Source: Gemmatimonadota bacterium
Lineage (GTDB): Bacteria > Gemmatimonadota > Gemmatimonadetes > Gemmatimonadales > GWC2-71-9
Assembly: GCA_039591655.1 (NCBI GenBank)
Contig: JBDHDE010000008.1
Coordinates: 1-64,000, forward strand
Direction of reading: 5' to 3'
DNA length: 64,000 nucleotides
The translations under genes and the position numbers were made by a program. Numbering within the stretch: position 1 is the first letter of the stretch; each line of letters starts with the position of its first letter. The notes under the pieces were generated by a model that saw nothing but the letters and a program-made list of their open reading frames with translations, was not told the origin of the DNA and made no database searches. Shown here one piece after another: positions 26,287 to 47,804 of this stretch.

Positions 26287-26721
26287 ATGGCCGACCTGGC
26301 GGGCGTTCGAGTCCTGGTCTTTCGAGTGGCGGATCGGCTGTGGGGGGCCGAGGTCGCGGCTGTCCGCGAGATTCTGCCACCGCAGGAGGCGACCCGGATC
26401 CCCGGCGCGACCGGCGCAGTGGCCGGGCTCATCAATGTGCGGGGGGAGTTGGTGCCGCTGGTGGACGGACGGCGTGCGCTAGGTCACACCCCGTCCGAGG
26501 ACCACGGCACCATTGTCTTAGTGGAAGTTGGCGAGCGGGCGGCCGGGTTCACCGTGGACGAGGTGATCGATCTCCTGACCGTCTCCGGGGATGACCTGTC
26601 GGACCGCGACGAGCTGCCGGGTGTGGACCCCCGGCTGGTGCGTGCGGTGGGACGGCGGGGAGACGAATCCTTCGTCTTTCTTGACCTCGACGCCCTGCTC
26701 GCCCCGATACTCAGCACGTAG
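26287..26721 (+). CDS. cheW: CheW coupling protein (copy 1)
   Basis: VREIL...TRIPG....GLINVRGELVPLVD, GFTVDEV. Confidence 0.9.
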   Translation: MADLAGVRVLVFRVADRLWGAEVAAVREILPPQEATRIPGATGAVAGLINVRGELVPLVDGRRALGHTPSEDHGTIVLVEVGERAAGFTVDEVIDLLTVSGDDLSDRDELPGVDPRLVRAVGRRGDESFVFLDLDALLAPILST

Positions 26722-26730
26722 GGAGGGTGT

Positions 26731-27093
26731 GTGAGCCAGACGGTGCTCGTGTGTGACGATGCGATCTTCATGCGCACGATGATCAGTGACATCCTCACGC
26801 AGGCCGGGTTCGAGGTGGTCGGTGAGGCGGAGACCGGCAAGCAGGCGGTGGAGAAGTACCAGCAGCTCAAGCCGGACCTGGTGACAATGGACATCGTCAT
26901 GCCGGACATGGGTGGCATCGATGCCGTGCGCGAGATCGTCAAGACCGATCCCGACGCCCGCGTCCTCATGTGCAGCGCCATGGGCCAGCAGGCGCTGGTG
27001 GTCGAGGCCATCCAGGCAGGCGCGAAGGACTTCGTCGTCAAGCCGTTTCAACCTTCTCGCGTCCTGGAAGCGGTGCAACGGGTTCTTGGCTAG
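26731..27093 (+). CDS. cheY: CheY response regulator (Bacillus/Thermotoga-like)
   Basis: DDAIFMR, TMDIVMP, MCSAMGQQ, KPF. Confidence 0.95.
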   Translation: MSQTVLVCDDAIFMRTMISDILTQAGFEVVGEAETGKQAVEKYQQLKPDLVTMDIVMPDMGGIDAVREIVKTDPDARVLMCSAMGQQALVVEAIQAGAKDFVVKPFQPSRVLEAVQRVLG

Positions 27094-27095
27094 GC

Positions 27096-28958
27096 ATGGA
27101 TCTCTCGCAATATGCGGAGCTCTTCCTCGCCGAAAGCCGAGAACATCTCAGCTCCATCAACCAGCTTCTGCTGGAATGGGAGCGGGACCCCGGGGCGAGC
27201 GAGCCGGTGGCAGGGATCTTCCGGGCCATGCACACCATCAAGGGCATGGCTGCGACGATGGGGTACGCCAGCGTGGCGGACCTGGCGCATCGCGCCGAGA
27301 ACCTGCTCGATCTGCTGCGCCGCGGCGAGCGCGCCCCCTCCGACGAGATCCTCGAACTTCTCTTCCGCAGCGCTGATTCCCTCGATCGAGCGATAGAAGC
27401 CTCCGTCGGCGGCCGCGAGGCCGACGTCGACCTCACCGAAATCCAGCAGGCCATCGGCCGGGTGACGCAGGCGCCCGAGCCCGCCGCCGAGCGCCCGGCG
27501 GCGAAGCGACCCTCGGCTCCCGCCATCCCAGCGCCGGCCAGGGGCGGTCGCCCGATCCGGATCGTCCTCCGCCCTGAGACGCCGCTCAAGGGCGCGCGGG
27601 CGCTCATCATCCTGCGGCGGCTCGAGAGTCTCGGGCGGGTGCACTCGGTGGAGCCTCCGTTGGTGGCGTTCGAGGGCGAGGAGTTCGCCGGGGATTTCGC
27701 GTTCCGCTTCGATGGCAAGCCGTCGGACGAGGACCTGGAGCGGGAGATCCGGACGGCGGGGGATGTGGAGCGCCTGGAGATGGGCCATCCCGAGGGGCCG
27801 GGACCCGAGGGGGCGAGCGGACGGGCGCGCCACATACGGGTGGATCTGCGGCGGCTCGACGCGCTCATGAACCTCATCGGCGAGCTGCTCACCGCCCGCG
27901 GCCGGCTGTCGGATCTCAGCGCCCGGCGCGACGACCCGGACCTGGAGGAGTTGGCGATCAGGGTCTCCCAGCTCTCGGGCGAGCTCCAGGCCGAGATCGT
28001 GCAGGCACGCATGACTCCGGTCTGGCAGGTCTTCGACCGGTTCCCCCGGCTGGTGCGCGATCTTTCCCGCCGGCTCGACAAGCAGGTGGCCTTCCGGATC
28101 GAGGGCAAGGAGATCGAGCTGGACAGGGCGATTCTCGACGACATCGGCGACCCCCTCGTCCATCTGTTGCGCAACGCGGTAGATCACGGCATCGAGGCCC
28201 CGGAGGAGCGCGAGGCGGCCGGCAAGCCGCCCCAGGGCACCATCGAGCTCAGCGCGATGCGCGAGCGTGCCACCGTGGCCGTCCGCGTGCGGGACGACGG
28301 GCGAGGTATCGACCGGAAGCGGATCCTGGAGCAGGCCAAGGAAATGGGGCTCGTCGATGCGGACGTAGACGAGCTGTCCGGCGAGGTGCTGATCCGCGTG
28401 CTGGGCCGCTCCGGCATCAGCACTGCCACGGAGGTCTCCGATGTGTCGGGCCGCGGGGTGGGCATCAACGCCGTCGCCCACACCGTGCGCTCCCTGGGCG
28501 GCGTCCTGGCGGTGGAGAGCGTCGTCGGCGAGGGAACGACCTTCACGCTGAGGCTGCCGACCACACTGGCCATCGTTCCGGCGCTCATCACCCGAGTCGG
28601 GGAGGAGCGCTACGCCCTGCCCGTCACGCACGTGGCCGAGACACTGGATCTCGATGCCCAGGCGGTCACGCGGGTGAACGAGCGGGATGCCATGACGTTG
28701 CGCGACCAGGTCGTACCGCTCGTGCACCTGCGCCGGATGCTCGAGATCCCGGGGGACGTTCCGCCTAGGAGCCCCGTCATCGTGCTCCAGATGGGCGAGC
28801 GGCGCTCGGGCCTGGTGGTCGATCGACTGCTGGGTCGGCAGGAGATCGTTGTGAAGGCGTTTGCCCCGCCGCGGGGGATGCTTCCCATCTTCAGCGGCGC
28901 CACGATCCTCGGTGAGGGGCAGCCCGTCCTGATTCTGGACGCCGGAGGCCTGGTTTAG
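27096..28958 (+). CDS. cheA: Chemotaxis histidine kinase CheA (P1-P5)
   Basis: FRAMHTIKG (Hpt His), P2 (LKGARA), LDALMNLIGEL, HLLRNAVDHG, DDGRG, SGRGVG, C-terminal CheW-like P5. Confidence 0.96.
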   Translation: MDLSQYAELFLAESREHLSSINQLLLEWERDPGASEPVAGIFRAMHTIKGMAATMGYASVADLAHRAENLLDLLRRGERAPSDEILELLFRSADSLDRAIEASVGGREADVDLTEIQQAIGRVTQAPEPAAERPAAKRPSAPAIPAPARGGRPIRIVLRPETPLKGARALIILRRLESLGRVHSVEPPLVAFEGEEFAGDFAFRFDGKPSDEDLEREIRTAGDVERLEMGHPEGPGPEGASGRARHIRVDLRRLDALMNLIGELLTARGRLSDLSARRDDPDLEELAIRVSQLSGELQAEIVQARMTPVWQVFDRFPRLVRDLSRRLDKQVAFRIEGKEIELDRAILDDIGDPLVHLLRNAVDHGIEAPEEREAAGKPPQGTIELSAMRERATVAVRVRDDGRGIDRKRILEQAKEMGLVDADVDELSGEVLIRVLGRSGISTATEVSDVSGRGVGINAVAHTVRSLGGVLAVESVVGEGTTFTLRLPTTLAIVPALITRVGEERYALPVTHVAETLDLDAQAVTRVNERDAMTLRDQVVPLVHLRRMLEIPGDVPPRSPVIVLQMGERRSGLVVDRLLGRQEIVVKAFAPPRGMLPIFSGATILGEGQPVLILDAGGLV

Positions 28959-28969
28959 GAGGCGGTAGC

Positions 28970-29590
28970 ATGGATGACTTGAGCGAACTGAAAGCGCTGC
29001 AGTTGGACGCCCTGAGAGAGGTGGCGAACATCGGTGCGGGGCACGCGGCGACCGCCCTCTCCCAGCTCACCGAGCGACGCATCATGATCAGCGTTCCGGA
29101 GCTCTTCGTGGCCCGGCTGGAGGAGGTTCCGGAGACGCTGGGCGACCAGGAAGAGATCGTCGCCGCCGTACTGATGCACATGCTGGGAGACCTGACGGGG
29201 CGGATGCTGCTCACGCTGCCGGAGCCCAATGCAAAGCTGCTCTGCGACCTGCTGCTGCGGCGGGAACCCGGCACCACGGCCGAGTTCGGCCAGATCGAGC
29301 AGTCGAGCATCAAGGAGGCCGGCAACATCCTGGGCGGCGCGTACATGAATGCGCTCTCCGACTTCATGGGCATGATGCTGCTGCCGTCGGTGCCGAGCCT
29401 GGCCATCGATCACTCGAGCGCGGTCGTGACCACCGCGCAGCTCAGCTTCGGCCGCGACAAGGACGTGGCGTTCTGCGTCGAGACGAACTTCCACTTCCAG
29501 GAGGCCGACCGCACGCTGCGGGGTCACTTCCTCTTGCTCCCCGACCTGGCGTCTCTCAAGACCATTTTCGACGCCATACGCGTCTCCTGA
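28970..29590 (+). CDS. cheC: CheC phosphatase
   Basis: Two active-site motifs: DALREVANIG and SSIKEAGNI. Confidence 0.93.
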   Translation: MDDLSELKALQLDALREVANIGAGHAATALSQLTERRIMISVPELFVARLEEVPETLGDQEEIVAAVLMHMLGDLTGRMLLTLPEPNAKLLCDLLLRREPGTTAEFGQIEQSSIKEAGNILGGAYMNALSDFMGMMLLPSVPSLAIDHSSAVVTTAQLSFGRDKDVAFCVETNFHFQEADRTLRGHFLLLPDLASLKTIFDAIRVS

Positions 29591-29594
29591 TCCC

Positions 29595-32276
29595 ATGGAG
29601 AACGGGGCCGTGCCGGAACGCGATCGCGACGTTCTGCGGTCCTTCGCGCGCCGGATCGATCCCTCCGACGCCGGCGCGCACAACAACCTCGGCGTGCTCT
29701 ACCACCGCAAGGGGTTGGTGGAGGATGCCATCGGGGCGTTCCAACGCGCGCTGGAGCTGGACTCCAAGATGCTCGTCGCACGTCGCAACTTGGAGATCGC
29801 GTATCGGGAGTCGGGGTACTACGATCGCCGGATCGCCGAGCTGCGGGAGCGGCTGCGGAACGATCCGGACGACGCGCAGTCCCGCTGGGAGCTGGGTCGA
29901 GCATACGCCTCCCTCGGCCAGTACGACGACGCCGCCGACGAGTTCCAGGCGCTGGTCGCCCGTAACGCCAACGACGTAGCAGCCATCATCCAGCTGGGCC
30001 TCACGGAGAAGACGCGGGGTGACCTCGAGACCGCCGAGGAGTGGCTGGAGCGGGCGGCCCTGCTGGATCCGGAGAGCAGCGTGGTGCACCAGTCTCTGGG
30101 CGAGGTGCGCTACAACCGCGGGTTGAACGCCGAGGCCCTGGCGTCGCTGGAGCGCGCCACCGCGCTCAACCCCGAGAACGCCGACGCTCACTACCAACTG
30201 GCCTTCGTGCTGGGCGATCTCCGCCGGCACGAGGAGGCCCGGGCCGCCACCAAACGGGCCATCGAGCTCAACCCCACGCTGGGACGGGCCCAGACCAACC
30301 TCTCCCTCGAATCCCTCGCGGAGCAGCGCAGCCGACCGTCGGCCGCGCAGACCGGCGAGCCGGTGGGCGAAGAGGCGGAGACCCTCGCCCACTACAACCT
30401 GGGCCGCGCATTCCGGCAGCAGGGCTACTACAACGAGGCGCTGCGAGAGTATCGCCTGGCCCTGGAGCGGGGAGAGGACCGGCAGTTGGTGCTCCAGGCA
30501 GTGGCCGAGGTCCACCTCCTCAAGGGGGACCACAGCGCGGGCCTGGAGCTGTACGAGCGCCTGGTGGGCGAGATGTCGGACAACCCCAAGCTGTGGAATG
30601 AGCGGGGTGTGGTGCTGCACCAGCTGGGGCAGTTCGAGCAGGCGCTGGAGTCCTATCGCAAGGCCACGGAGATGGCCCCGGAGTACGCCTTGGCCGCCAA
30701 CAACCTGGCGATCACGCTGGCGCAGGTCGGGCAGCTGGAGGAGGCGGTCGAGGCGTTGGGCGCGGCGCTCGAGTGGGCGCCCGAGCTGGTCATTCCCAGG
30801 CTCAACCTGGGGCTCCTGCTGCTCAACCTGAAGCGCTTCCAGCCGGCATTGCAGGCGTTCCGCCGCGTGTTGGAGAGCGACCCGCATGCGGCAGCGGCCT
30901 GGAACGGGATCGGGCTGGTGCTGAACGAGATCGAGCGCACCGAGGACGCGCGCAACGCCTTTGCCCGAGCCGTCGAGGCGGACCCGCAATCGGCGGAGGC
31001 GCACTACAACCTGAGCTTCGCGCTCTCGCGCATGGGCGACTACGACGGGGCACTGCGTGCGGTGACCCGCGCCCAGACGCTGGATCCGTACTACGTGCCC
31101 CAGAAGTTCCGTCTCGCCATCGATCTGCAGTACGAGGATCCCACGATCTCGGTGGTGCCGGAGATATCGGCCGACGTGGCGACCGACTTCGCCGGACAGG
31201 GCATCAGCTTCGAGCCGGAAGCGCTGGACAACCTGTTTGCCGAGCTGGGGCCGGCCCCGCCCAAGCCCGTAGCGGACCGGCCCAGCGGCACCTTCAACCT
31301 CGCGCGGGACTACTTCAACAAGGGGCTACTGGAGCTGGCGGCGGCCGAGGCGACGCGGGCCGTTGGCCGGGGCGGGGATCCGATAGACGGCCACCTCCTG
31401 TTGGGAGAGATCTTCGCCCGCCGCGGGCTGCACGGCGAAGCCCTCGAGCGGTATCGTGCGGCCCGGCAGATCGCGCCGCACCGCGCCGACGTGCGGCTCG
31501 GAGAGTTGCGCGAGCTGGTGGCGCTGGGACGGGGGGCCGAGGCCGTGGACGATGCCGTCCAGCTCGCCGAGGAGCGGCCCGACGACGTCAATGTTCTGGT
31601 GTCCCTGGCCACCGCACGGTTGGCGGCCGGCGACCCCGGCGGGGCGCTGGAGGCGCTGGGCGACGCGCGCCAGCGCGCGCCGCAACGGGCGGACCTCCTG
31701 AAGCTCGAGGGAGACATCGCGGTTGGGATGGGCAACCTCATGTCAGCGGGCTCGGCATACGAGGCTGCTCTCGAGCTCGATCCCCGGTTCGTGCAGGTGC
31801 GACTCGACCTCGGGAAGGTGTACGAGGCGCAGGAGGATTGGGCCGCGGCCGAGGCCTGCTATCGGGCGGCCCTGGAGGTCCTGCCCACCTTCTACGATGC
31901 CACCGTTGCCCTCGCCGAGCTACATCGGCACCGGGGCGCGCCGAAGAAGTCCGTGGCGCTCCTGGTCGATCTCCTCACCGGCGATCCCACCGCCCTGGAG
32001 GCGCTGCTGTCGTTGGGGCAGGCGCTGTTGGACGACGGGCGGGCTCCGCAGGGCCTCGAGGCGTTCGAGCGACTGCTGGCGCACGACCCGCAGCACGTGG
32101 GCGCGATGTTCCTGACCGGAGTCTCGTTCGCGCGGCTGCGCCGCTACCAGCAGGCGGTTGAGCGGTGGGAGCGGGTCGTCGGCATGGACCCCAGCGGCCC
32201 CTATGCCCAGCGTGCACGGCAGCACGCCCGCACCGCGCTGGACCTGCAGCGCATCTTCCGGTCTGAGGTCGCCTAG
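29595..32276 (+). CDS. Large cytoplasmic TPR-repeat protein (893 aa)
   Basis: Many AHxNLG...A...F..AL..DP repeats; no signal peptide or catalytic domain seen. Confidence 0.9.
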   Translation: MENGAVPERDRDVLRSFARRIDPSDAGAHNNLGVLYHRKGLVEDAIGAFQRALELDSKMLVARRNLEIAYRESGYYDRRIAELRERLRNDPDDAQSRWELGRAYASLGQYDDAADEFQALVARNANDVAAIIQLGLTEKTRGDLETAEEWLERAALLDPESSVVHQSLGEVRYNRGLNAEALASLERATALNPENADAHYQLAFVLGDLRRHEEARAATKRAIELNPTLGRAQTNLSLESLAEQRSRPSAAQTGEPVGEEAETLAHYNLGRAFRQQGYYNEALREYRLALERGEDRQLVLQAVAEVHLLKGDHSAGLELYERLVGEMSDNPKLWNERGVVLHQLGQFEQALESYRKATEMAPEYALAANNLAITLAQVGQLEEAVEALGAALEWAPELVIPRLNLGLLLLNLKRFQPALQAFRRVLESDPHAAAAWNGIGLVLNEIERTEDARNAFARAVEADPQSAEAHYNLSFALSRMGDYDGALRAVTRAQTLDPYYVPQKFRLAIDLQYEDPTISVVPEISADVATDFAGQGISFEPEALDNLFAELGPAPPKPVADRPSGTFNLARDYFNKGLLELAAAEATRAVGRGGDPIDGHLLLGEIFARRGLHGEALERYRAARQIAPHRADVRLGELRELVALGRGAEAVDDAVQLAEERPDDVNVLVSLATARLAAGDPGGALEALGDARQRAPQRADLLKLEGDIAVGMGNLMSAGSAYEAALELDPRFVQVRLDLGKVYEAQEDWAAAEACYRAALEVLPTFYDATVALAELHRHRGAPKKSVALLVDLLTGDPTALEALLSLGQALLDDGRAPQGLEAFERLLAHDPQHVGAMFLTGVSFARLRRYQQAVERWERVVGMDPSGPYAQRARQHARTALDLQRIFRSEVA

Positions 32277-32279
32277 GCC

Positions 32280-33431
32280 ATGGCGATCGAGGGCCCACTC
32301 AAGGAGCTGAGCATCCACGATGTCTTCCAGCTCTTGGACCTGAGCCGGAAGACGGGGCTGCTCACCGTCACCTCCAAGCTGCGCCACAACGCAGGCACGG
32401 TCTACTTCGACGGCGGCGCCGTGGTCTACGCTGCGATCCAGGACAACCCGCACCCGCTGGGCGAGCTACTGCTGCGTACGGGGAAGATCACCGACGCCGA
32501 CCTGAACCGCGCCCGGGACATGCAGGAGGGGGGCGACACGCGGCTGCTGGGCGAGGTCCTAGTGGAGATCGGAGCCATCGGCCGAGGGGAGCTCGAGCGG
32601 CAGGTCCGATTCCAGGTGGAAGAGGTGATCTTCGAGGTGATGAACTGGAGCGAGGGCTACTTCACCTTCGAGGAGGGCCCGCTCCAGGGGGTGCCCGCCG
32701 ACGCCACCGTGAGGATCACCACTGAGTCGGTTCTCATGGAGGGGGCGCGTCGCATTGACGAGTGGTCGCGCATCGAGCGGAAGATCCCCAACGTAGAGGT
32801 CGTCCCCACGCTAGCGCCGGCGCAGCAGGGCGAGCCCGGGGGGTTGGATCTCCTGCCAGCCGAATGGGAGATCCTGGCGACGATCGATGGTGAGTGTGAT
32901 ATCCGCACCATCGCATCCTTGATCGGTCGGTCGGAGTTCGATGTTGCCAAGACGCTCTTCGGGCTCGAGAGCGCCGGGCTCATCACCGTGACCGAGGCCG
33001 GGCCGACGACGCGGGTGGCTCCAGAGGCCGCCGATACGGACGGCATGTTGGAGCGCGCCCACGCGGTGCTCGAGGCCGGCGACTACACGACGGCGACGGA
33101 GCTCGCGGAGGCGGCCCGCGAGCGCTTCCCGCACGACCCTGTCGTCTATCTCCTCCTGGGACGGTTGGATCTCCAGAGGCGACGACCCGCTGACGCCGAG
33201 GAGCACCTGCGTCGGGCTCTCAGATTGGATCCGCTCCTCGGCCCGGCTCACCTCCAGCTCGGCCATTCACTGGCGCTCCAGGGACGCCTGAGCGAGGCGA
33301 TCGAGTGGTGGCAGCGCTGGCTCACCATCGGCGAGCAGGCGGACGGGGACCCCGGCGAGATCCAGCAGGTGCGGGAGGCGCTCCAAGCCGCGCGTACGTT
33401 GAGCTCGTTCCTAAGAGGCGTCCATGGCTAG
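32280..33431 (+). CDS. DUF4388-like protein with degenerate MshEN-like motifs, wHTH-like segment and TPRs
   Basis: G.L......DVFQLL..SRKTG.L...G.VYF..G..VYA; EGYFTFE; EGARRIDEW; C-terminal TPRs. Confidence 0.82.
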   Translation: MAIEGPLKELSIHDVFQLLDLSRKTGLLTVTSKLRHNAGTVYFDGGAVVYAAIQDNPHPLGELLLRTGKITDADLNRARDMQEGGDTRLLGEVLVEIGAIGRGELERQVRFQVEEVIFEVMNWSEGYFTFEEGPLQGVPADATVRITTESVLMEGARRIDEWSRIERKIPNVEVVPTLAPAQQGEPGGLDLLPAEWEILATIDGECDIRTIASLIGRSEFDVAKTLFGLESAGLITVTEAGPTTRVAPEAADTDGMLERAHAVLEAGDYTTATELAEAARERFPHDPVVYLLLGRLDLQRRRPADAEEHLRRALRLDPLLGPAHLQLGHSLALQGRLSEAIEWWQRWLTIGEQADGDPGEIQQVREALQAARTLSSFLRGVHG

Positions 33432-34221
33432 CGACATCAAAGCCATGAGCGCCGAGCTGGCGCGCGACCCCTCGAGCCTGGTCTTCCTGGACCTGGGCGA
33501 GGCGCTGCGCCGACGGGGTCAGATCGATGCCGCAGTCCGAGTGGTGGTGGGCGGATTGGAGCAGAACCCCGACATGGTGGAGGGGCACGATCTGTACGCC
33601 CGGATTCTGGTGGACCAGGGCGACTTGGCCCGGGCGGAGCAGATGTGGAACCGCGTGCTGGAGCGGAGCCCGCAGCACCAGGGGGCTCACAAGGGGCTGG
33701 GCTTCCTGGCATATCGGATGGGCGACTTGGGGGCCGCGTTGGAGCACCTGGAGCTGGCGCTGGCGGCGGATCCCACCGATCAAGCCGTGGTGCGCGCCCT
33801 GAAAATGGTGCGGAACACGGTGCAGGAGCTCGAGGTTGGCGCAGAGGCCGCCGGGGGCGATGACCCCATCTTCGCAGGGCTCGAAGGCGCGGAGGACGGG
33901 CTCCTCCTGGTGGATGACCGCGGTCGCGTGCTCGGGGGACGGGTCACCGGCGCCGGTGGGGCCGAAGTCTCCGAGGCCGTGGCGGCGTTCCTGGCGGGGG
34001 CCGCCCAGGAGGCGGAGCGCACGGCCCGGATGCTCGATCTCGGTGACTGGCGCTGGCTCGTGGCGGAGGGGCCGGAGGGGAACGTGTACGTGACGCCGCC
34101 CACCGGCGAGACACTGCTCCTCATCCTGCGTGACCGCAGCGTGCCGTCGGGGCGGCTGGCGATGCTCGCGGAGCGGGCCGGGCATGTGGCCCGGCGCTGG
34201 CTCGAGGAGCAAGAGCTGTGA
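33424..34221 (+). CDS. TPR + roadblock/LC7-like fusion protein
   Basis: N-terminal DPSSLVFLDLGEALR TPRs; C-terminal LLLVDDRGRVL...AERTARMLDLG.W....EG roadblock-like domain. Confidence 0.75.
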   Translation: MASDIKAMSAELARDPSSLVFLDLGEALRRRGQIDAAVRVVVGGLEQNPDMVEGHDLYARILVDQGDLARAEQMWNRVLERSPQHQGAHKGLGFLAYRMGDLGAALEHLELALAADPTDQAVVRALKMVRNTVQELEVGAEAAGGDDPIFAGLEGAEDGLLLVDDRGRVLGGRVTGAGGAEVSEAVAAFLAGAAQEAERTARMLDLGDWRWLVAEGPEGNVYVTPPTGETLLLILRDRSVPSGRLAMLAERAGHVARRWLEEQEL

Positions 34222-34568
34222 CGACGCAATTCCAGCGGCTGCTCGACGGCGTCACGCAGGTGAGGGGGGTACAGGGCGCGATGTTGGTGGCGGCCGAGGA
34301 CGGGCTGGTGGTGGCCGAGTCCCTCATGGAGGGCGTGCGGGGCAACGCGGTGGCCGCCCTGGCGGCGAGCCTGTACAAGCGGTTCCGCCAGGCGATGGAA
34401 GCGGCTGCCGCAGGCACGCCGCACTTCCTGCACCTGCAGGGAGAAGGCGGCACGCTGATTACCGTTCCCGCACCCGACGCGATCCTCGTGGTTGCCGTGG
34501 GCGTGCCGGATATGAATGTGGGGCTCGTGAGGCTCGAGATGCTGCGTGCCGCTGAGATGGTCGGGTGA
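34218..34568 (+). CDS. Roadblock/LC7 protein (MglC-like)
   Basis: GVQGAMLVAAEDGLVVAE...VAALAASL...NVGLVRLEM. Confidence 0.85.
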   Translation: MTTQFQRLLDGVTQVRGVQGAMLVAAEDGLVVAESLMEGVRGNAVAALAASLYKRFRQAMEAAAAGTPHFLHLQGEGGTLITVPAPDAILVVAVGVPDMNVGLVRLEMLRAAEMVG

Positions 34569-35035: not shown

Positions 35036-35038
35036 GAC

Positions 35039-35638
35039 GTGTCACTAGTCAACTTCACTACGCGCGAGATCACCTGTAAGATCGTCTATTACGGACCCGG
35101 CCGGTCCGGCAAGACGACGAACTTGCAGTATATCTATGAGAGGGTCCCCGGTGATCGCCGCGGGCGGATGGTCTCCCTCGCCACCCAAACCGACCGTACC
35201 CTCTTCTTCGATTTCCTCCCGTTGGAGCTGGGGAGTATCTCGGGCTTCACGACGCGGTTTCAGCTCTACACGGTCCCGGGGCAGGTGTACTACAACGCCA
35301 CGCGTAAGCTGGTCCTGCAGGGGGCCGACGGCGTGGTCTTTGTGGCGGACAGCCAGGCGCGGCAACTGGACGAGAACATCGAGAGCCTACAGAACCTGCA
35401 GGAGAATCTCCTGGAGCAGGGTGTCGACGCGCGGGGGGTGCCCCTCGTCATCCAGTACAACAAGCAGGATCTGCCGAGCGACCTCATTCTCTCCACGAGC
35501 GAGCTCAACGAGGCGCTGAACTTCTGGGGCGCTCCCAACTTCTCCGCCGCCGCCCTCGAGGGCACCGGTGTGTTCGAGACGCTGAAGGCCGCGTCGGAGC
35601 TGGTGCTGCGAAAGCTGAGCGAGGAGACACCGACGTGA
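35039..35638 (+). CDS. mglA: Small Ras-like GTPase MglA
   Basis: [52 protein letters not shown]. Confidence 0.95.
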
Positions 35639-37605
35639 GCGACGAGCTCAATCCGCGCTTCAGCTTCGAGACCTTCGTGGTCGGCGCGGGCAACAGGCTT
35701 GCCGTGACCGCGGCGCGCACGGTGGCGCAGTCACCAGGGGCGGCCTACAACCCGCTTTACCTGTACAGCCCCACCGGTCTGGGCAAGACGCATCTGCTCA
35801 CGGCGGTCGGACAGCTAGCCAAGGAACACAGCCCCGACCTGCACGTGGAGTACCTCACCCTGGACGAGTTCGTCGAGGCGTATCACGCAGCGGTCGCCGC
35901 AGGGCAGAGCGAAGCGTTCCGCAACCGGTTTGACCGGGTCGATGTACTCCTGGTGGACGACGTGCAGTTCCTCACACACCGGCGGGAGATGCAGGCGGAA
36001 CTGTTGCGCGTTACGGGGCAGCTCCAGTCGGCGGGGAAGCAGATCGTGCTCACGAGCGACTGTCCCCCCTCGGAGATCGAGGACCTAGACGAGCGCCTGC
36101 TGTCGCGCTTCGACGGCGGACTAGTGGCGGACATCGGTGCCCCTGACTACGAGACGCGCCTCGCGATCCTCAAGCGGCGGGCCGAGGACCGCGATGCCGA
36201 GTTCGACGAGGAGGTATTGGGGGCGGTCGCGAGCTTCGACCTCCCCAATGTCCGGGAGCTGCTGGGGCTGCTGAACCGGTTGGTGGCATATCAGGCGGTG
36301 AGCGAGTCGCCGCTCACGCCTGCGGGAGCCAAGGAGTTGCTGGCTGGGGATGCAGAGCGCGCCAAGGCCGCTGCGGAGAGGCCGCCGCCCGCACCGCCTG
36401 CCGCACCGGCGCCGGTCGCCCGGCCGGAGGACGAGTTCGCCGATTTTCTGTCCGACGTGGCGCACACGGTCGAGGAGCAGGTGGAGGCATGGCGATCCCG
36501 CCTGGGCGAGGCCATCCTGCTCTGGGAGGCGGAAGGCTATCGCACGGTGCGGCTGGAGGAGATGCTGCAGCAGGACATCCCTGTGCCCGCCGAGCGCGTG
36601 GTCCAGCAGTTCGAGCGGGACGTCGAGCGCCTCCGATCCTCCCAGGCGGCCATCGCCAAGATGGATCCCGGGCGGGCCGACGACCCCCTGTTCTTCGACC
36701 CCGACCGCGTGGAGGAAGCCAACGAGCTGGTGCAGCAAGCGCTGGTGGACACGGGCCCGCCCCCCGGTCCGTCGGCAGCGTGGTCCCTCGACACGTACGT
36801 GGTCGGTGAGGCCAACAAGGTCGCGCTCAATGCCGCCCGCGCAGTCGCCGATCGGCCGGGCCAGCGCTACAACCCGCTGGTGCTCGTGGGCCCCACGGGC
36901 GTCGGCAAGACGCATCTCATGCACGCCATCGGGCACCGGCTCGGCGCAGCAGCCGATGCCGTTGTCGCGTGTCTCACGGCGCAGCAGCTGTTGGACGAGC
37001 TGGTCGAGGCGATCGAAGGTGAGCGGGTGGACATCTGGCGCGCGCGGTACCGGAGGGTGACGGCCTTTCTGCTGGACGACGTGCACATCTTGGCCCGCAA
37101 GGAGCGCTCCCAGGAGGAGCTGTTCCATCTGTTCAACGAGCTGCACGACGCCGGACACCAGTTGGTGTTCACCGCGGTGACGTCCCCGCGGGAGATCGAG
37201 GGGTTGGACGACCGCTTGAAGTCTCGGCTGGAGGGCGGGCTCGTCACGACAATGGCGGGACCGGATCGGGAGCTGCGGCGCAACATCGTGGCGCGCAAGA
37301 TGGACGAGCTGTTCCGGGGCGTGGACGACGAGCTCATCGACTACATCGCGGCGCGACCGGCGGACTCGATACGCGCGGTGCTCGGCTTGATCCAGCGGGT
37401 TGCGATCGCCGCCGAAGCACAGGAGGTCGCGCCCAGTGCCGCGTTGGCGCGGGAGCTGATCGAGGGCGCAGCCCCGGAGCGGGCCCGGACGGGCGTGCGC
37501 ACGAGCGGGGTGCTCCTGTCTCCCTCGGGGAACGTGCGCAGCCGGGAGAAGCTCGTTTGGAGTTGGCCCGATCCGGTGGAACGCGTGATTGAGGCGCTGG
37601 TCTAG
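35635..37605 (+). CDS. Tandem DnaA-type AAA+ protein (two domain III modules; no domain I or IV)
   Basis: Two copies of VVG..N..A...A..VA..PG..YNPL...P.G.GKTHL, DDV..L, L..RL.SR..GGL; no C-terminal DnaA HTH (RDHTTV) motif. Confidence 0.88.
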
Positions 37606-39221
37606 TGGCGATCAAGGGTAGTCTCAAGGAGGCCTCGCTGGCCGACGTGTTGCAGCTGCTGGCCCTGGGACAGAAGACCGGGTGCCTGTCGGTCACGGAC
37701 CGCACCAATCTCGGACACATCTACTTCGACCGGGGGCGCGTCTCGTACGCGTCGCTGGTGAACCGACGGGACCGCCTCGGGGATATCCTGGTCAAGAACG
37801 GCAAGATCACCCAGGCGCAGCTGCACGGGGCGATCGAGCAGCAGGGCCGCGAGCGCGACAAGCGGCTCGGGGAGATCCTTTTGGAGCAGGGCGCAGTCTC
37901 CCGGGAAGATCTAGAGCACTACATGCGTGTCCAGATCGAGGAGGCCGTGTTCTTCCTGTTCACATGGTCCCGGGGAAGCTTCAACTTCGAGGCCGACGTC
38001 TATCCCGCGGAACAGGACTTCCTCGTCAGGATCAATCCCGAATCCCTCCTCCTCGAGGGAGCGCGACGAGTCGATGAGTGGAGCCTCATCGAGAAGAAGA
38101 TCCCGTCGTTCGACCTGATCTTCACCGTCGATCGGGCGCGCCTCGATGCGTCCCAGGTCACCCTCACGCCGCAGCAGGAGCGTCTCATGACGCTGCTCGA
38201 CGGCTCACGGGACGTCGCGGGCATCGTAGAGGATTCGGGGCTCGTGGAGTTCGAGGTCGGCAAGGCGCTCTACGGGCTCATCACCGCGGGGTTCGCCCAC
38301 CGCACCGGCCGCAGCGCGACGACGCGTCCCGAAGTCGGCGACGCGCGGGTGGATGAGCACCGCAACCTCGGCATCGCGTTCTACAGGACCGGGATGCTCG
38401 ACGAGGCGACGCGGGAGTTCCGGCGCGTGGTGGATCTCCGCACGTCGGACGGGTCCGCCCAGTTCTACCTCGGCCTCATCGCGCTGAAGCAGGCGCACTG
38501 GCAGGAAGCGATACGGCACTTCAGCCAGGCGGTGGAACGTGGCGGTCCCAATGCCACCGTGCTGCACAATCTCGCGCTGAGCTACGAGAAGGACGGACGC
38601 TTCGACGAAGCGGAGGACGTGTACGCCGAAGCCGCGACGCTGGCGCGTCGCGATGCTCGCATCATGACGAGCTGGGGCATCAATGCGCTGCAGCGCGGCG
38701 ATTGCGAGGTTGCCGCCGGACGGCTCGACCGCGCCCGGGAGATCACCGGCGACGAGACACCGAGCGCCCTGTGGTATTGGGCCCGTTCCCTGTCCGCATC
38801 TGCGCTGGGGAATCTCCAGGAGGCCGACGCCCTACTGCGGGACGGTCTCGACACCTACCCCGGCCACTCCGTGTTGCGCAACAACCGGGGGGCACTGCTC
38901 GAGATGATGGGCGATCTCACGCAGGCGGAAGACGTGCTGCGGGCGGCGCTGGCAGACGACCCCTCACTGCCGCAGCTCTCCAAGAACCTCGGCGATCTCT
39001 TCTACCGGGCGGCGCGCTACGACGACGCCTGGGAGGCGTACCAGCGGGCCGTCAAGCTGAACCCCAAGCTCGGGGACGACGTCTACTTCAAGCTGGGCAA
39101 CATCGCCTATAAGCGACTCGACCGCGAGTCCGCTGCCGAGTTCTGGCGCAAGACGTTGGAGCTGAACCCGGGGCACGAGCTGGCCCGCACCAATCTCGAG
39201 ACGGTGAGCGCGCTCACGTGA
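37605..39221 (+). CDS. DUF4388-like protein with intact MshEN-like motifs, wHTH-like segment and TPRs
   Basis: Paralog of 32280-33431; tandem RLG..L...G.I....L......Q motifs; EGARRVDEW; many TPRs. Confidence 0.85.
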   Translation: MAIKGSLKEASLADVLQLLALGQKTGCLSVTDRTNLGHIYFDRGRVSYASLVNRRDRLGDILVKNGKITQAQLHGAIEQQGRERDKRLGEILLEQGAVSREDLEHYMRVQIEEAVFFLFTWSRGSFNFEADVYPAEQDFLVRINPESLLLEGARRVDEWSLIEKKIPSFDLIFTVDRARLDASQVTLTPQQERLMTLLDGSRDVAGIVEDSGLVEFEVGKALYGLITAGFAHRTGRSATTRPEVGDARVDEHRNLGIAFYRTGMLDEATREFRRVVDLRTSDGSAQFYLGLIALKQAHWQEAIRHFSQAVERGGPNATVLHNLALSYEKDGRFDEAEDVYAEAATLARRDARIMTSWGINALQRGDCEVAAGRLDRAREITGDETPSALWYWARSLSASALGNLQEADALLRDGLDTYPGHSVLRNNRGALLEMMGDLTQAEDVLRAALADDPSLPQLSKNLGDLFYRAARYDDAWEAYQRAVKLNPKLGDDVYFKLGNIAYKRLDRESAAEFWRKTLELNPGHELARTNLETVSALT

Positions 39222-40033
39222 CGGGCGGCGAGCACGACCCGGCACTGCTCGAGCTGTTCCAGCGGATCGGGCGGAACTGCGGGCTTGGCTGTGAGGCCTA
39301 CAAGGCCAGCTGTCTGCGCCGGCGCCTTGCCGTGCGGATGCGTGCGTGCGGCGTGGAGACCTACCAGCAGTACGGGGCGGTGCTGGACCAGGACGCCTCC
39401 GAGTATGGGCGCCTGCTGGACGCGCTCACGATCAACGTCACCAAGTTCTACCGTAATGCCGAGACCTGGCAGGTGATCGCCGATACGGTGCTCCCCGAGT
39501 TGTGGGCGCAGCGGCCGGGACATGTGCGGTGCTGGTCGGCCGGATGCGCCTCCGGCGAGGAGGCGTACACGCTGGCCATGCTGCTGCTGGAGCGTGCCCG
39601 GGGCACGGGCGATCTCACCGCGTCGGGTTGCTGGGTGGACGCCACGGATCTCGATCACAGGAGCTTGGCCCGGGCGGCCGATGGGGCATACCGCCCCGAC
39701 GCGTTCGACGAGATGCCGGGAACGCTCATCACCAGGTACGTCAAGGGCGACACGTCCCGCGCGGTGGCCCCCGAGGTGAAGGCCCTGGTGCGGTTTCGGC
39801 GCCACGACCTGCTACGGGATCCCGCGCCGGCTCCGCCGTATGAGCTCATCATTTGCCGCAATGTGGTGATCTACTTCGATCGGCCGACCCAGGATGTGCT
39901 GTTCCAGAGCTTCGTGCAGGCGCTCTCCCCCGGGGGCTATCTGGTCCTGGGCAAGGTCGAGACGTTGGTCGGGCAGGCGCGGGACCGGCTCGTCATCGAG
40001 AACACGCGCGAGCGGATCTATCGGAAGCCATGA
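39218..40033 (+). CDS. cheR: CheR methyltransferase
   Basis: TINVTKFYR, WSAGCASGEEAYTLAM, ICRNVVIYFD. Confidence 0.95.
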   Translation: MTGGEHDPALLELFQRIGRNCGLGCEAYKASCLRRRLAVRMRACGVETYQQYGAVLDQDASEYGRLLDALTINVTKFYRNAETWQVIADTVLPELWAQRPGHVRCWSAGCASGEEAYTLAMLLLERARGTGDLTASGCWVDATDLDHRSLARAADGAYRPDAFDEMPGTLITRYVKGDTSRAVAPEVKALVRFRRHDLLRDPAPAPPYELIICRNVVIYFDRPTQDVLFQSFVQALSPGGYLVLGKVETLVGQARDRLVIENTRERIYRKP

Positions 40034-40524
40034 CACCGGAGAACAACGAGACCATCGTCGGCTTGGGTGAGATCGCCGTGGCGCAGGGGAACGGCAGGCT
40101 TACGGCCCTCGGTCTGGGGAGCTGCGTGGCGGTGATCCTGCACGACCCCGAGGGGAAGATCGGTGCCCTCGCACACGTGCTCCTGCCCACCCAGACCCTC
40201 TCGCGCACGCAGCGCAGCCCCGCCCGGGCGGCGGACACCGCGGTCCCGGCGATCGTCCAGGAGATCAAGCAGCAGGGGGCGGTGCTCCAGCGGACAGTGG
40301 CGAAGCTGGTCGGCGGCAGCACGATGTTCGGCGACCTGCTTCCCACCGGCACGGTCCACATCGGTGAGCGCAACGTGCTGGCATGCCGCTACGCTCTGCG
40401 CCAGGCGGGCATACCGGTAGTAGCGGAGGCCGTGGGAGGGCGGTCCGGCCGGTCGGTGTTCTTCGACGTCGCCTCGGGCACCGTGACTGTGCGGCAGGTC
40501 GGACGGGACCCGCAGGTCGTCTAG
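40030..40524 (+). CDS. cheD: CheD glutamine deamidase
   Basis: GLGSCVAV (catalytic Cys), AHVLLP (His), KLVGG..MF, IGERN. Confidence 0.93.
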   Translation: MTPENNETIVGLGEIAVAQGNGRLTALGLGSCVAVILHDPEGKIGALAHVLLPTQTLSRTQRSPARAADTAVPAIVQEIKQQGAVLQRTVAKLVGGSTMFGDLLPTGTVHIGERNVLACRYALRQAGIPVVAEAVGGRSGRSVFFDVASGTVTVRQVGRDPQVV

Positions 40525-40530
40525 CTGTCG

Positions 40531-41592
40531 GTGACCAAAGCATCAGTCCTCGTTGTCGATGACAGCGCCCTCATGCGGCGCGTGCTTTCAGACATCATCA
40601 ACGAGTCCGAGCGCTACCGCGTCGTGGGGACGGCGCGGGACGGGATCGACGCCGCCGAAAAGGTCCACCGCTTCGATCCCGACGTGGTCACGATGGATAT
40701 CGAGATGCCGCGCCTCGACGGCCTGGGTGCCATCGGGTACATCATGAGCGAGGCGCCCCGGCCCGTCGTTGTGGTGAGTGCCTACGCCGGGCCGGGCACC
40801 GAGGCGGCGATCCGCGCGCTGGAGCTGGGCGCGGTCGAGATCGTCGCCAAGCCGCGGGACCCGAGCGGGCAGGCGCTCCACACCATTGCCCCCGCCCTGG
40901 TGGGTGCACTGGACGCCGCACTGCAGGCCAACCTGACCAGCGTTCCCATGCTCGCCCGGGAACTGCCGCCGCCCGAGCGCCCCCCCGCAACCTGGGTCAA
41001 GGGCCGGGCGCAATTCGCGGTGGCGATCGCGGCCAGCACGGGGGGCCCCCGAGCGCTGGCGGATGTGATCCCGCGACTGACGGCCGGGGCGGAGGCCGCC
41101 GTGGTGGTCGTGCAGCACATGCCACCCCACTTCACCCGGAGTCTCGCCGAGCGGCTCGATGCCGCCAGCATGATCCGCGTGGTCGAGGCGGGCGACGGCA
41201 CGCCGTTGCTGGCCGACACGGCGTACATCGCCCCCGGCGACTACCACATGCGCGTCGAGGCGGGGACCGACGGCCCGGAGGTGCGACTGTCCCAGGATCC
41301 ACCGATCTGGGGCGTCCGCCCCGCCGCGGACCCGCTGTTCAAGTCGGTTGCGCGGCTCTTCGGACGGCGGTCGCTCGGTGTGGTGCTCACCGGCATGGGG
41401 CGGGACGGGGCCGAGGGCCTCCGCGCCATCCGGGACGCCGGAGGAGGGGGCATGGCGCAGGATAAGGACACGGCGGTGATCTTCGGCATGCCCCAGGCCG
41501 CCATCGCGGGGGGCGGTGCGGAGGAGGTGGTGGCGCTGGACCGCATCGCGTCGCGCATAGAGACGCGCGTGAAGGGGCGCGTGGAGACGTGA
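40531..41592 (+). CDS. cheB: CheB methylesterase (REC + esterase)
   Basis: [33 protein letters not shown] triad. Confidence 0.96.
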
Positions 41593-42011
41593 AGGGCTAT
41601 CTTTTGATTGAGGCGGGCGGCGCTCGTTACGGCTTGTCGGTGGATGACGTGCGCGAGGTGATCGAGGTGGGGTCGGTACATCCTGCCCCGAGTGCCCACG
41701 CCGCAGTGCTTGGCGTGACCCAGGTTGCCGGCCGCTTCATACCGCTGGTGCACCTCCGGGCGCTCGTCGAGCGGGAAGAGACGTGCGGGGAGCCCGGGAA
41801 GACCGGGGTGGTGGTGCGTTGCGGGGCACAGCGTGTGGTACTGGCGGTGGACGACGCCGACACGGTGATTCGCGAAGCCCCCGAGTCGGTGCCGGAGGGA
41901 TTGGAGCTGCCGTGGGCGGCGGGCGTGGCCCGCTACGAAGGAGACCTGGTTCCCATCGTGGATATGGAGGTCATGGCGGAGCGACTCCTGTCGGTGAGCG
42001 CGGGCGAGTGA
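41589..42011 (+). CDS. cheW: CheW-like protein (copy 2, divergent)
   Basis: YGL.V..VREV, VLGV..V.GR.IPLVHL, LAVD. Confidence 0.75.
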
Positions 42012-42012
42012 G

Positions 42013-42540
42013 ATGAGCGCAGGCGACGAGATTCAGTTGGTCACGTTCCGGCTGGGCGGCCAGGACTTTGCGGTGAACCTCTTCCATGTCGAGAGGATCC
42101 TCCGCTATCAGCCTCCGGTGCCCCTCCCGAAGGCGCCCGACTACCTGGAAGGCATGGTCCAATACGGTGATGCCGCCGTCCCGGTGGTGGATCTGCGCAA
42201 GCGCGTGAGCGTGGATGCGCCGGTACGTGACGAGACGCGCATCATGATCCTGGAGCTGGGTCAGGACCGGATCGGTATCGTGGTGGACGCCGTGCTGGAA
42301 GTGCTCAAGGTGCCGGCCGACCGCGTGGCGGCGCCGCCGTCCATCGTCCAGGGATTGGCGGCCAAGTACATCTCCGGGATCGTGTCGCTGGACGGGCGGA
42401 CCATCGTCGTGCTGGCTGCGACCACGCTGCTCTCAGCGAAGGAGCGGCTGGCGCTGGAGCCTCTCACCAAGGCGGCCGAGACCAAGACCACCAAGAAGAA
42501 GAAGGTGAAGAAGGCGGCCAAGGGGGCGGCCGGTGACTGA
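42013..42540 (+). CDS. cheW: CheW (copy 3) with Lys-rich C-terminal tail
   Basis: QLVTFRLG...FAV....VERI, P.APDY.EG, VPVVDLRKR, GIVVDAV.EV. Confidence 0.88.
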   Translation: MSAGDEIQLVTFRLGGQDFAVNLFHVERILRYQPPVPLPKAPDYLEGMVQYGDAAVPVVDLRKRVSVDAPVRDETRIMILELGQDRIGIVVDAVLEVLKVPADRVAAPPSIVQGLAAKYISGIVSLDGRTIVVLAATTLLSAKERLALEPLTKAAETKTTKKKKVKKAAKGAAGD

Positions 42541-43390
42541 TGCGATGATCCCGTCCCTGCGGGGCAGGTATGACGAGATCATGCGCCGCCTTGAGGCGAG
42601 GCCGACGGGGGACGAGAGCGAGCAGATCAAGCGCGACATCATTGGGCTCTTCAAGTCGGTGGATCAGACGATCACCGAACTGAGCACTCTGAAGGAGGAC
42701 ATCCGGGTCCTCGTCGATCGGTACAAACAGCTGGCGCGCAACGAGAGCGGCGATCAGGCGCCGGAGTTCACCGGGGCGGTTCCGGTGATGCAGGACCACC
42801 TCGGAGCGTCGACGTTCATCGAGAAGGGCTGGAGCCTCATCTCTCTCGGGGACTACAACGGGGCGATCCAGGCGCTGACCAAGGCGCTCGGCCTGTCTCC
42901 GGGTGACGTGCAGGCGGAGTCCCTGCTCGGCTGGGCGCAGATGCTGGCCGAGGAGTACGATGCGGCGCTCGGGACCTTCCAGATGGTCCTCACCAAAGAG
43001 CCCGCCAACTCGCTCGCGCGGATCAACGTGGGCTTCATCTGTCTCAAGAAGCGGATCTTCGGCGAGGCCATCGAGCACCTGTCCAAGGCGATTCGCCTCG
43101 ACAACGATCGGAAGGCCACACTCTACGCCCACTACTATCTCGGGCTCGTGTACTTGGAGCGCGAGATGTTCGAGGACGCGCAGACGTTCTTCGAGAAGAC
43201 TCTGAAGCTCGGCCCCAACCTGATCGAGGCGCGCTACGAACTGGGACGGGCGAAGTGGTTCGCCGGTGATCGCGACGGCGCAGGGGAGACGTGGCGGCAG
43301 GGCTATGAGGCGAACAAGTTCAATCCGTGGGGCAAGCGCTGTAGCGAGATGCTCGACCTGGTCGCGCAAGGCCAGGAGCCACCACGCTAG
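42533..43390 (+). CDS. Coiled-coil + TPR protein
   Basis: N-terminal helical hairpin followed by about 5 TPRs; overlaps the cheW stop. Confidence 0.85.
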   Translation: MTDAMIPSLRGRYDEIMRRLEARPTGDESEQIKRDIIGLFKSVDQTITELSTLKEDIRVLVDRYKQLARNESGDQAPEFTGAVPVMQDHLGASTFIEKGWSLISLGDYNGAIQALTKALGLSPGDVQAESLLGWAQMLAEEYDAALGTFQMVLTKEPANSLARINVGFICLKKRIFGEAIEHLSKAIRLDNDRKATLYAHYYLGLVYLEREMFEDAQTFFEKTLKLGPNLIEARYELGRAKWFAGDRDGAGETWRQGYEANKFNPWGKRCSEMLDLVAQGQEPPR

Positions 43391-44479: not shown

Positions 44480-44553
44480 GGGCGAATAGCTCAGGGGTCC
44501 AGAGCGCCTGCCTTACAAGCAGGAAGTCGGGGGTTCGAATCCCTCTTCGCCCA
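44480..44553 (+). tRNA. tRNA-Val(TAC)
   Basis: Acceptor GGGCGAA/TTCGCCC, anticodon arm CCTGC-CTTACAA-GCAGG, T-loop TTCGAAT; CCA not encoded. Confidence 0.96.
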
Positions 44554-44606
44554 TGTGCTGGCGGTCAACGTGCTCGGGCGTGGAGCCCGGGTCCTAGGAT
44601 CGGAGG

Positions 44607-46403: not shown

Positions 46404-46410
46404 GAGGCGC

Positions 46411-46439
46411 TTGAATTCGAGCCTCGACCGGTCTACATT
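46411..46439 (+). promoter_or_regulatory. sigma70 promoter of tRNA-Asp
   Basis: TTGAAT-N17-TACATT, 18 bp upstream of the tRNA. Confidence 0.7.
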
Positions 46440-46457
46440 GCCACGCTGTCGCGGTTC

Positions 46458-47800: not shown

Positions 47801-47804
47801 ACCG

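Follow-up and report, generated by a model that had tools for sequence, protein, structure and literature searches.

A conserved gene row of Gemmatimonadota that combines chemosensory, MglA and DnaA-derived proteins around an apparently undescribed hub

The gene row and its constant pair

The window analysed here, a 64,000-nucleotide stretch of contig JBDHDE010000008.1 (assembly GCA_039591655.1) from a Gemmatimonadota bacterium with a 95% complete genome, contains at positions 26287-43390 a row of 18 open reading frames (ORFs), all on the plus strand and separated by gaps of -8 to +11 bp. The Pfam domains follow one another as CheW, REC, CheA (Hpt, P2, dimer, HATPase and CheW), CheC, TPR, DUF4388 with TPR, TPR with Roadblock, Roadblock and Roadblock in genes 1-9, and as small GTPase, two Bac_DnaA, DUF4388 with TPR, CheR, CheD, CheB, CheW, CheW and TPR in genes 10-18. 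The packed, co-oriented arrangement with this order of genes and domains, described in the original prediction from the letters alone, is thus borne out by the ORF coordinates and Pfam. No convincing membrane segment was seen in any encoded protein, with one weak window in the small roadblock. Two products are central to what follows, namely the DnaA-like protein, hereafter the adaptor, and the second of two PATAN (DUF4388) proteins, A and B; the two TPR proteins TPR893 and TPR285 are named after their lengths. We conclude that the row is a real, class-wide and apparently undescribed system, in which known signalling parts are arranged around a new hub.

Sixty genomic stretches were compared, 40 around matches to the linker part of the adaptor (in 39 genomes, picked out of the 79 with a match for contig size and family spread) and 20 where searches disagreed; eight were set aside as other loci (L037, L058-L061, L066-L068). 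In the remaining 52 loci, from 51 genomes, the genes follow rluD in one order and differ only by losses, so that the row cannot be put down to chance, and the synteny of the non-Che with the che genes, on which the original prediction had staked itself, held. The interleaved, overlapping arrangement is retained across at least five families. Two loci (L053, L065) end at contig edges before protein B; in all 50 that reach it, the gene for protein B directly follows that for the adaptor or an adaptor remnant.

The losses are instructive. All Che genes are gone, with nine others intact, in L038, L039 and L063, and are decaying in L048, whereas L056 and L057 have lost the MglA arm and kept Che. 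The roadblocks were not detected in L027, L028, L030 and L045, MglA has eroded catalytic motifs and TPR893 is cut in L020 and L047 (with similarly low scores in L069 and L070), and in L035 only the adaptor and protein B remain. Eight core genes are about as conserved in Che-less loci (0.77-0.95, one contig-cut gene set aside) as in Che-bearing ones (means 0.86-0.96); TPR893 is the only gene relaxed there (0.69-0.80 versus 0.88). In two loci of different families, L013 and L041, CheA ends exactly before its CheW domain (L013:15770-17278, L041:2418-4241) and all cheW, cheR, cheB and cheD genes are missing, with the Hpt histidine, P2, kinase domain, CheY and CheC kept; decay is a possible alternative explanation. 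One genome with such a CheA (G060) has no receptor at all, and in L054 cheR alone is kept between protein B and TPR285, with cheA, cheY and cheB gone. The only genes common to all loci that keep CheY are those for protein B and the adaptor.

The constant part of the system is, accordingly, the PATAN-MshEN-TPR gene of protein B together with two short motifs of the adaptor gene, and the Che and MglA genes are removable arms. The proposal that a single operon wires Che signalling, a GTPase switch, cyclic di-GMP (c-di-GMP) and an ATP switch gains from the conserved synteny and motifs, and the co-location on which it was built stands, but its view of Che as a core wrapped around the rest does not, because the Che and MglA arms are each lost alone while the hub pair stays constant.

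The 5′ edge of the row is not clear: ileS, dksA, lspA and rluD are co-oriented with it, and the first cheW starts at 26287, just past the rluD stop at 26285, so that the row may be read from upstream. A consensus scan for promoter- and terminator-like signals gave no excess over shuffled sequence. Genus g47 (L027, L028, L045) has two tandem copies of lspA ahead of the operon. Downstream, from 44480 to 49727 and on to 61719, lie tRNA-Val, a gene for a 598-aa exported TPR protein, tRNA-Asp and then the dcw cluster through ftsZ; the position of the exported TPR gene is conserved. Elsewhere in the window (2191-3519, 4213-6129, 15423-19124) are a radical SAM gene, a Ser/Thr kinase, a CdaA-like diadenylate cyclase gene and an 854-aa ORF without NCBIfam match.

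Table 1. Genes and features of the row, with its usual 3′ neighbour
Feature	Coordinates	Strand	Basis or remark
cheW-1, 144 aa	26287..26721	+	Pfam CheW E 1e-29; begins 1 bp past rluD stop
cheY, 120 aa, Thermotoga-type	26731..27093	+	best PDB match 1TMY, E 1.4e-52
cheA, 620 aa, Hpt-P2-dimer-HATPase-CheW; sole CheA of genome	27096..28958	+	Pfam; H46, N-box and G-boxes conserved
cheC phosphatase, 206 aa, two E...N motifs	28970..29590	+	Pfam CheC; NCBIfam CheC_Thtogales 165 bits, below cut-off 250
TPR893, cytoplasmic TPR scaffold, 893 aa; conserved non-TPR insert at about residues 500-560	29595..32276	+	Pfam; no transmembrane segment
PATAN (DUF4388) protein A, 383 aa, degenerate MshEN insert and TPR	32280..33431	+	Pfam; MshEN 31.3 bits, below 38
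TPR-roadblock fusion, 265 aa	33424..34221	+	Pfam
Stand-alone roadblock, 116 aa	34218..34568	+	Pfam Robl_LC7 E 1e-12
mglB-like roadblock/GAP (GTPase-activating protein), 156 aa	34565..35035	+	Pfam; Thermus MglB model 37 bits, below cut-off
mglA, group-1 Ras-like GTPase, 199 aa	35039..35638	+	PDB 6HJH E 2.5e-75, residue alignment
DnaA-derived adaptor ATPase, 656 aa: two AAA+ domains with an acidic helix and then a helical linker unit between them, and a W-x-W peptide at the C-terminus	35635..37605	+	
Adaptor acidic helix, residues 266-275; retained in 60-aa mini form of relatives	36430..36459	+	F271 in 40/40 rows
Adaptor helical linker unit, about residues 286-372	36490..36750	+	homologous to eight-fold repeat of Thermoplasmatota proteins
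Adaptor C-terminal peptide, residues 637-656; retained in single-ATPase and mini forms	37543..37602	+	
PATAN (DUF4388) protein B, 538 aa, tandem MshEN motif (37773-37934) and TPRs; constant hub gene	37605..39221	+	
cheR, 271 aa	39218..40033	+	Pfam
cheD, 164 aa	40030..40524	+	Pfam; best NCBIfam model CheD_Thtga, below cut-off
cheB, 353 aa, REC and methylesterase	40531..41592	+	Pfam; NCBIfam model above cut-off
cheW-2, 140 aa	41589..42011	+	Pfam
cheW-3, 175 aa	42013..42540	+	Pfam
TPR285, 285 aa, conserved N-terminal helical part; remains when Che genes are lost	42533..43390	+	Pfam, locus comparison
Peptidase MA-like gene, usual 3′ neighbour; system membership uncertain	43441..44247	+	not in L051, L052, L054, L056, L057

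The hub proteins, the two arms and the rest of the genome

Both AAA+ domains of the adaptor align with domain III of B. subtilis-type DnaA (E 8e-59 to PDB 8BV3) and conserve Walker A (its lysine in 40 and 39 of 40 rows), Walker B, the Arg finger region and sensor II; they should be able to bind and hydrolyse ATP and to oligomerise head to tail. DnaA domains I and IV had no Pfam match in the adaptor, and TIGR00362 matched only at model positions 102-336 of 437. The adaptor nevertheless passes that model on its summed score (488.8 versus 343.9) and is consequently mis-annotated as DnaA or DnaA/Hda. Hda is a single AAA+ domain with a clamp-binding hexapeptide; the adaptor misses the Hda cut-off (181 versus 194.8 bits), and no clamp motif was seen by eye at either of its ends. 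In a tree of 58 AAA+ domains, after removal of two rows in the wrong frame and one on a long branch, its two domains are sister groups set apart (SH-aLRT 97) from 15 true DnaAs, among them the genome's own, which is encoded elsewhere; they are best explained by an ancient duplication and not by recent copying of the resident dnaA. The nearest ESM Atlas clusters are from Gemmatimonadota. A plasmid search returned only ordinary dnaA, with no record that covers 80% of the adaptor.

The ATPase itself is variable. Forms with one ATPase domain occur in L033, L034 and many library matches, and genera g15, g48 and g56 have an ATPase-less mini form, an ORF of 60-70 residues in which little more than the acidic helix plus the C-terminal peptide is left. 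The mini form coincides, in g15 and g48, with the loss from protein B of precisely the MshEN insert (model positions 60-114); g56 keeps the insert.

When 1.84 billion representatives were searched with the linker part, 177 matches resulted; among the 150 of these that were listed, nearly all are adaptor-like, and a small number are long proteins in which the unit is repeated, from Thermoplasmatota where named. Up to eight repeats are recognised by a profile built on the unit, with E values of 1e-19 to 1e-52 in 12 proteins versus 0.019 or worse for reversed controls. The 21 archaeal loci encode a globular N-terminus, the repeats, optionally a DnaA ATPase and often a double zinc ribbon, and adjoin genes for an RNB nuclease and thiamine pyrophosphokinase. 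In 16 of these 21 loci (L071-L091) the repeat-rod gene lies downstream of that for the RNB nuclease, a 900-aa protein whose long N-terminal part is unannotated. The archaeal N-terminal domain gave an in-register profile match to PATAN at a probability of 3.8% (1.6% elsewhere) and Atlas values of 0.88 for DUF2226 and 0.84 for PatA_N; it may be DUF2226/PATAN-like, which we regard as a lead only. In the tree of AAA+ domains, a support of 66 neither shows nor rejects a common origin of the archaeal and adaptor ATPase domains. That the archaeal loci are the same system was ruled out, given their nuclease and thiamine kinase neighbours and the lack of an MglA match with one query in five incomplete genomes.

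MshEN consists of two 24-residue RLG...Q motifs in tandem (PMC5013675). Protein B passes the model of this MshE-type c-di-GMP motif (56.1 bits, cut-off 38) with two tandem motifs, the arginine R57 in 46 of 51 rows (the other five are without the insert), a spacer of six residues and Ile/Met in place of one terminal Leu, and is thus a probable c-di-GMP sensor. Protein A remains below the cut-off (31.3 bits): both leading arginines are missing here, and in relatives motif position 1 is Pro in 19 of 34 rows and the second Arg, Leu in this genome, is present in 23 of 34. The prediction of MshEN-type proteins therefore fits protein B and fails for protein A. In four genomes, a third paralogue with PATAN and MshEN (about 970 aa), which ends in a carboxypeptidase-regulatory-like domain, is encoded beside a large exported-looking gene (L096:12855-15773, L099:2719-5625, L098:3-1241, L100:1698-3737); it was considered as a link to pil genes and discarded, its neighbours not being pil genes.

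MglA is of group 1, retains motifs G1-G4 with R53, T54 and PGQ82, and is encoded next to a roadblock gene; the intact GTPase and ATPase motifs agree with the switch modules that had been proposed. Most genomes of the same order have two mglA genes, and the copy at the recR site remains where the operon copy is lost. Here, the second mglB-mglA pair, whose mglB is a paralogue of the operon mglB, follows dnaX-recR (L095, G000:C17:6904-8094; dnaX and recR named by eye).

The Che arm fits a Thermotoga/Dif-like system of F1 type with orphan receptors of 44H length, judging from CheC, CheD, P2, the Thermotoga-type CheY and the receptor lengths. CheY is closest to that of T. maritima, keeps its phospho-acceptor D54 and K104 in 48 of 48 rows and is 78-93% identical in relatives; CheC and CheD are nearest to Thermotogales models, although below the cut-offs. 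One receptor of the genome is colinear with T. maritima 2CH7, which we take to be of the 44H class, and the five receptors align across the hairpin with at most a one-residue gap. Systems of the Frz/ACF or Tfp class have a CheA fused to one or more receiver domains and lack CheC and CheD; the operon CheA, with Hpt, P2, dimer and kinase domains and one CheW domain, shows no such REC fusion, and both CheC and CheD are present, so that the comparison with Frz made in the original prediction gives way to one with Thermotoga- and Dif-type systems. In PMC10542144, every CheA surveyed has four core domains, and CheW is one of those that it discusses, which would make the CheAs without a CheW domain in L013 and L041 exceptions or remnants. 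PMC9862903 mentions a cheA only as calcium-regulated.

The genome encodes one CheA, five orphan receptors (methyl-accepting chemotaxis proteins, MCPs) and nine GGDEF proteins, the MCP and GGDEF genes lying outside the row. Two of the receptors (G000:C1:85648-87798, C41:3-1820) have several membrane segments and then a GAF-like cytoplasmic stretch in place of HAMP (by eye). Whole-genome searches placed no MCP, pilus ATPase or PilM on this contig, in keeping with the prediction that the window has no MCP, flagellar or pilus gene, and found no FlhA, FliM/N or flagellin anywhere in the 95% complete genome. PilB, PilT, PilC and PilM are encoded away from the row, pilM on another contig; a comEA-like helix-hairpin-helix gene stands directly 5′ of pilB-pilT-pilC (L093:2928-7726), and the pili may for that reason serve DNA uptake. 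PilB carries the full c-di-GMP motif, of the same kind as protein B. A second PilB-like ATPase, on contig C9, ends in a receiver domain (by eye).

Distribution and possible function

With protein B as marker, 89 matches were obtained in 121 genomes of the phylum and 86 were retained as strong after removal of three at E about 1e-7; no single claim depends on the two unpublished genomes (G076, G114) included in the tallies, and since related genomes are not independent, co-occurrence counts are given without a test statistic. The marker is present in 54 of 55 genomes of the same family, in 25 of 28 of a second family and in none of four families of more distant groups. The exception in the family, G063, also lacks CheA, MCP and PilM. 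FlhA occurs in 31 of the 121 genomes: 65 of the 86 carriers are without it, 21 have it, and ten flagellated genomes are without the hub. A CheA dimer-domain match is still found in 58 of the 65 FlhA-less carriers; five of the seven carriers without such a match also lack MCPs, which ties the orphan receptors to the Che arm of the operon. PilM is encoded by 85 of 86 carriers.

Given the 65 FlhA-less carriers and the lack of flagellar genes found in this genome, flagellar chemotaxis is not the main job of the operon, as the original prediction had anticipated. An ordinary flagellar chemotaxis operon with passengers is accordingly very improbable, even though Thermotoga-type Che proteins usually serve flagella: 14 of the 21 flagellated carriers have two or more CheAs, several near flhA, and one has only another CheA, but six (G049, G112, G124, G023, G069, G054) show only that of the operon, and there a second role is possible.

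We favour a cytoplasmic signalling hub that integrates phosphorylated CheY (CheY~P), MglA-GTP and c-di-GMP and sets where or when type IVa pili are active, a reading to which we give an even chance. Protein B would form the hub, bound by the adaptor through its two short motifs, as their strict co-retention suggests; the adaptor, devoid of the DNA-binding domain of DnaA, would cluster the hub, for example at a pole, instead of opening an origin. As a first input, the orphan 44H-type receptors would act through CheW and CheA on CheY, with CheC as phosphatase and CheR, CheB and CheD in adaptation, as family knowledge suggests. In a genome with no FliM/N found, CheY~P needs another target, and by elimination this would be the hub pair, which alone is common to all loci with CheY. 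A CheY-docking site in TPR893 was dismissed as a general target, its acidic motif persisting in Che-less loci and TPR893 being cut or lost in loci that keep CheY. A second input, spatial asymmetry, would come, as in M. xanthus, from MglA-GTP acting together with MglB, the two other roadblocks and the TPR effectors. The third input, c-di-GMP, would bind MshEN and may gate the ATPase in trans, since motif and ATPase are lost together in two of three genera. As in Synechocystis, the PATAN domain could then contact the pilus motor PilB/PilC. The conserved order around the hub, the flagellum-free carriers, PilM in nearly every carrier, the c-di-GMP motif of PilB and the joint absences in G063 all count in favour of this reading, and the CheAs of L013 and L041, without receptor coupling and with CheY and CheC kept, are as expected if the inserted block holds the phosphorelay.

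Several observations weigh on the other side. No pil gene lies in the block, whose neighbours are rluD and a peptidase gene, and PilM is also present in 32 of 35 non-carriers, three of the same order among the genomes with PilM and no hub (G102, G106, G108), so that co-occurrence with pili, proposed as a check together with flagella, does not discriminate; only independence from flagella came out of that comparison. The pilus function might also be served by the separate mglBA pair at recR, without any part played by the operon. Either arm is lost alone (Che in L038, L039 and L063, the MglA arm in L056 and L057, with MglA eroded in L020 and L047), hence signalling from Che to MglA is not obligatory. 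The CheAs without a CheW domain may be decaying, as L048 does outright; that of L013 has 39% identity and an undetected dimer domain. L054 lacks the ATPase yet retains MshEN, and the archaeal relatives adjoin nuclease and thiamine kinase genes, with no MglA found in five genomes.

The less likely, although not exclusive, alternative is a Dif-like lifestyle switch, in which the Che arm and the c-di-GMP hub control exopolysaccharide (EPS), adhesion or biofilm and the pili act upstream as a sensor. The order cheW-cheY-cheA-cheC presumably equals difC-D-E-G, the receptors are of 44H length, one of them colinear with 2CH7, and the MshEN region of protein B weakly matches models of c-di-GMP-activated glycosyltransferases. 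The gene content resembles that of Geobacter Dif-like clusters (PMC2577667), and a PilB with c-di-GMP motifs signals upstream of Dif (PMC5544727). No polysaccharide gene lies in the block, however, the hub persists without Che genes or receptors, and Dif, as far as the cited papers describe it, has a receptor in its cluster and no MglA, PATAN or AAA+ partner.

Control of the cell cycle or division, by an adaptor that co-assembles with or inhibits DnaA in the manner of Hda or SirA or that marks a division site or budding pole, and thereby couples signals to replication and division, appears improbable. The strong homology to domain III, with Arg finger and sensor II kept, and the dcw cluster (mraW-ftsI-mur-ftsW-ftsA-ftsZ), which begins about 3 kb downstream on the same strand, would suit it, but domain IV is missing, the AAA+ domains stand apart from true DnaA, three genera have deleted the ATPase, and 35 of the 121 genomes lack the whole block. 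Two tRNAs and another gene separate block and dcw, and ileS-lspA-rluD beside dcw is a common old synteny. Asymmetric division, raised in the original prediction, finds no support beyond this neighbouring cluster.

Also improbable, and placed just behind, is the view that a Che pathway and an MglA/PATAN/ATPase module share locus and promoter without direct contact. Independent loss of the arms and the conservation of the eight core genes in Che-less loci, where TPR893 alone relaxes, agree with it; the overlapping, interleaved genes kept across families, the receptor-less CheA-CheY-CheC retained in two lineages and the conservation of CheY without a flagellar target do not.

Beyond the favoured pilus-directed hub, a broader proposal, possible but clearly more doubtful, is that the DnaA ATPase was recruited in Gemmatimonadota and Thermoplasmatota into a new signalling scaffold, where it serves as an optional filament engine beside a PATAN-type domain and the linker unit; in Gemmatimonadota, an ATP-driven polymer gated in trans by c-di-GMP would be the direct target of CheY~P and MglA-GTP, with the 60-residue peptide as minimal connector. 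If true, such a polymer would be a flagellum-free output for a Thermotoga-type chemotaxis pathway. The operon would exemplify Che proteins of Thermotoga type that work in the absence of flagella throughout most of an abundant phylum, and the use outside replication of a DnaA ATPase now labelled DnaA/Hda in databases. In Myxococcus, with its dispersed genes, the path from a chemosensory phosphorelay to the MglA polarity switch remains under debate; in Gemmatimonadota the candidates stand in one row, and natural deletions leave two proteins as possible targets of CheY~P, one of them reduced in some genomes to a peptide of 60 residues.

Relation to known systems

The literature searched contained no account of the operon as a whole or of the adaptor, although papers behind a subscription (such as the 2010 class scheme) and a supplement of PMC4316618 may list the cluster. 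Closest to the Che arm are Dif of M. xanthus and the Dif-like clusters of Geobacter, in which 44H receptors accompany CheA, W, Y, C and D and unknown genes (PMC2577667); M. xanthus itself has just two receptors of the 44H class, DifA and McpK (PMC3945109). CheW, CheY, CheA, CheC (with CheD and CheR), 44H-length receptors, a non-flagellar context and unknown cluster genes are shared. Unlike Dif, the operon has no receptor in the cluster (no MCP on the contig), CheB and three CheWs, and nine inserted non-Che genes; an output to EPS, as in Dif, is for the operon a rival reading.

The polarity module of M. xanthus (MglA, MglB, MglC, RomR/X/Y and SgmX, driven by Frz) likewise combines group-1 MglA, MglB with extra roadblocks, a long TPR partner, a chemosensory system and type IVa pili in the genome. 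There, SgmX, a TPR protein recruited by MglA, brings PilB to the pole (PMC11580455), a role that TPR893 might fill by analogy, and mglA is not near its partner genes (PMC4316618). Here, by contrast, all lie in one row, the Che arm has CheC, CheD and P2 and no CheA-REC fusion, no RomR-like gene is in the block, a PATAN-MshEN hub and a DnaA-derived adaptor are added, and a separate mglBA is found at recR.

Cyanobacterial PATAN (DUF4388/PatA-type) pilus regulators, whose PATAN domains bind PilB1 and PilC in Synechocystis (10.1101/2021.06.11.447907), also adjoin a chemosensory system, but have a fused receiver domain, which is absent here, whereas the operon has the MshEN insert, TPRs and a DnaA-derived partner. 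Proximity of group-1 MglA to PATAN genes has been noted: a table row for Gemmatimonas aurantiaca GAU_1409, ‘PATAN>MglA>-PATAN’ (PMC4316618 supplement 3), shares this adjacency and itself names neither Che genes nor DnaA. With DnaA domain III and Hda, the adaptor shares an AAA+ domain with DnaA-type motifs; it differs in lacking domains I and IV, in an ATPase that is doubled, single or absent, and in its novel linker unit and C-terminal peptide, with the true dnaA elsewhere. The Thermoplasmatota repeat-rod proteins, finally, are built from the same helical unit, in eight repeats, and their DnaA-type ATPase is likewise optional, but each is one long polypeptide with other neighbours, an RNB nuclease and thiamine pyrophosphokinase.

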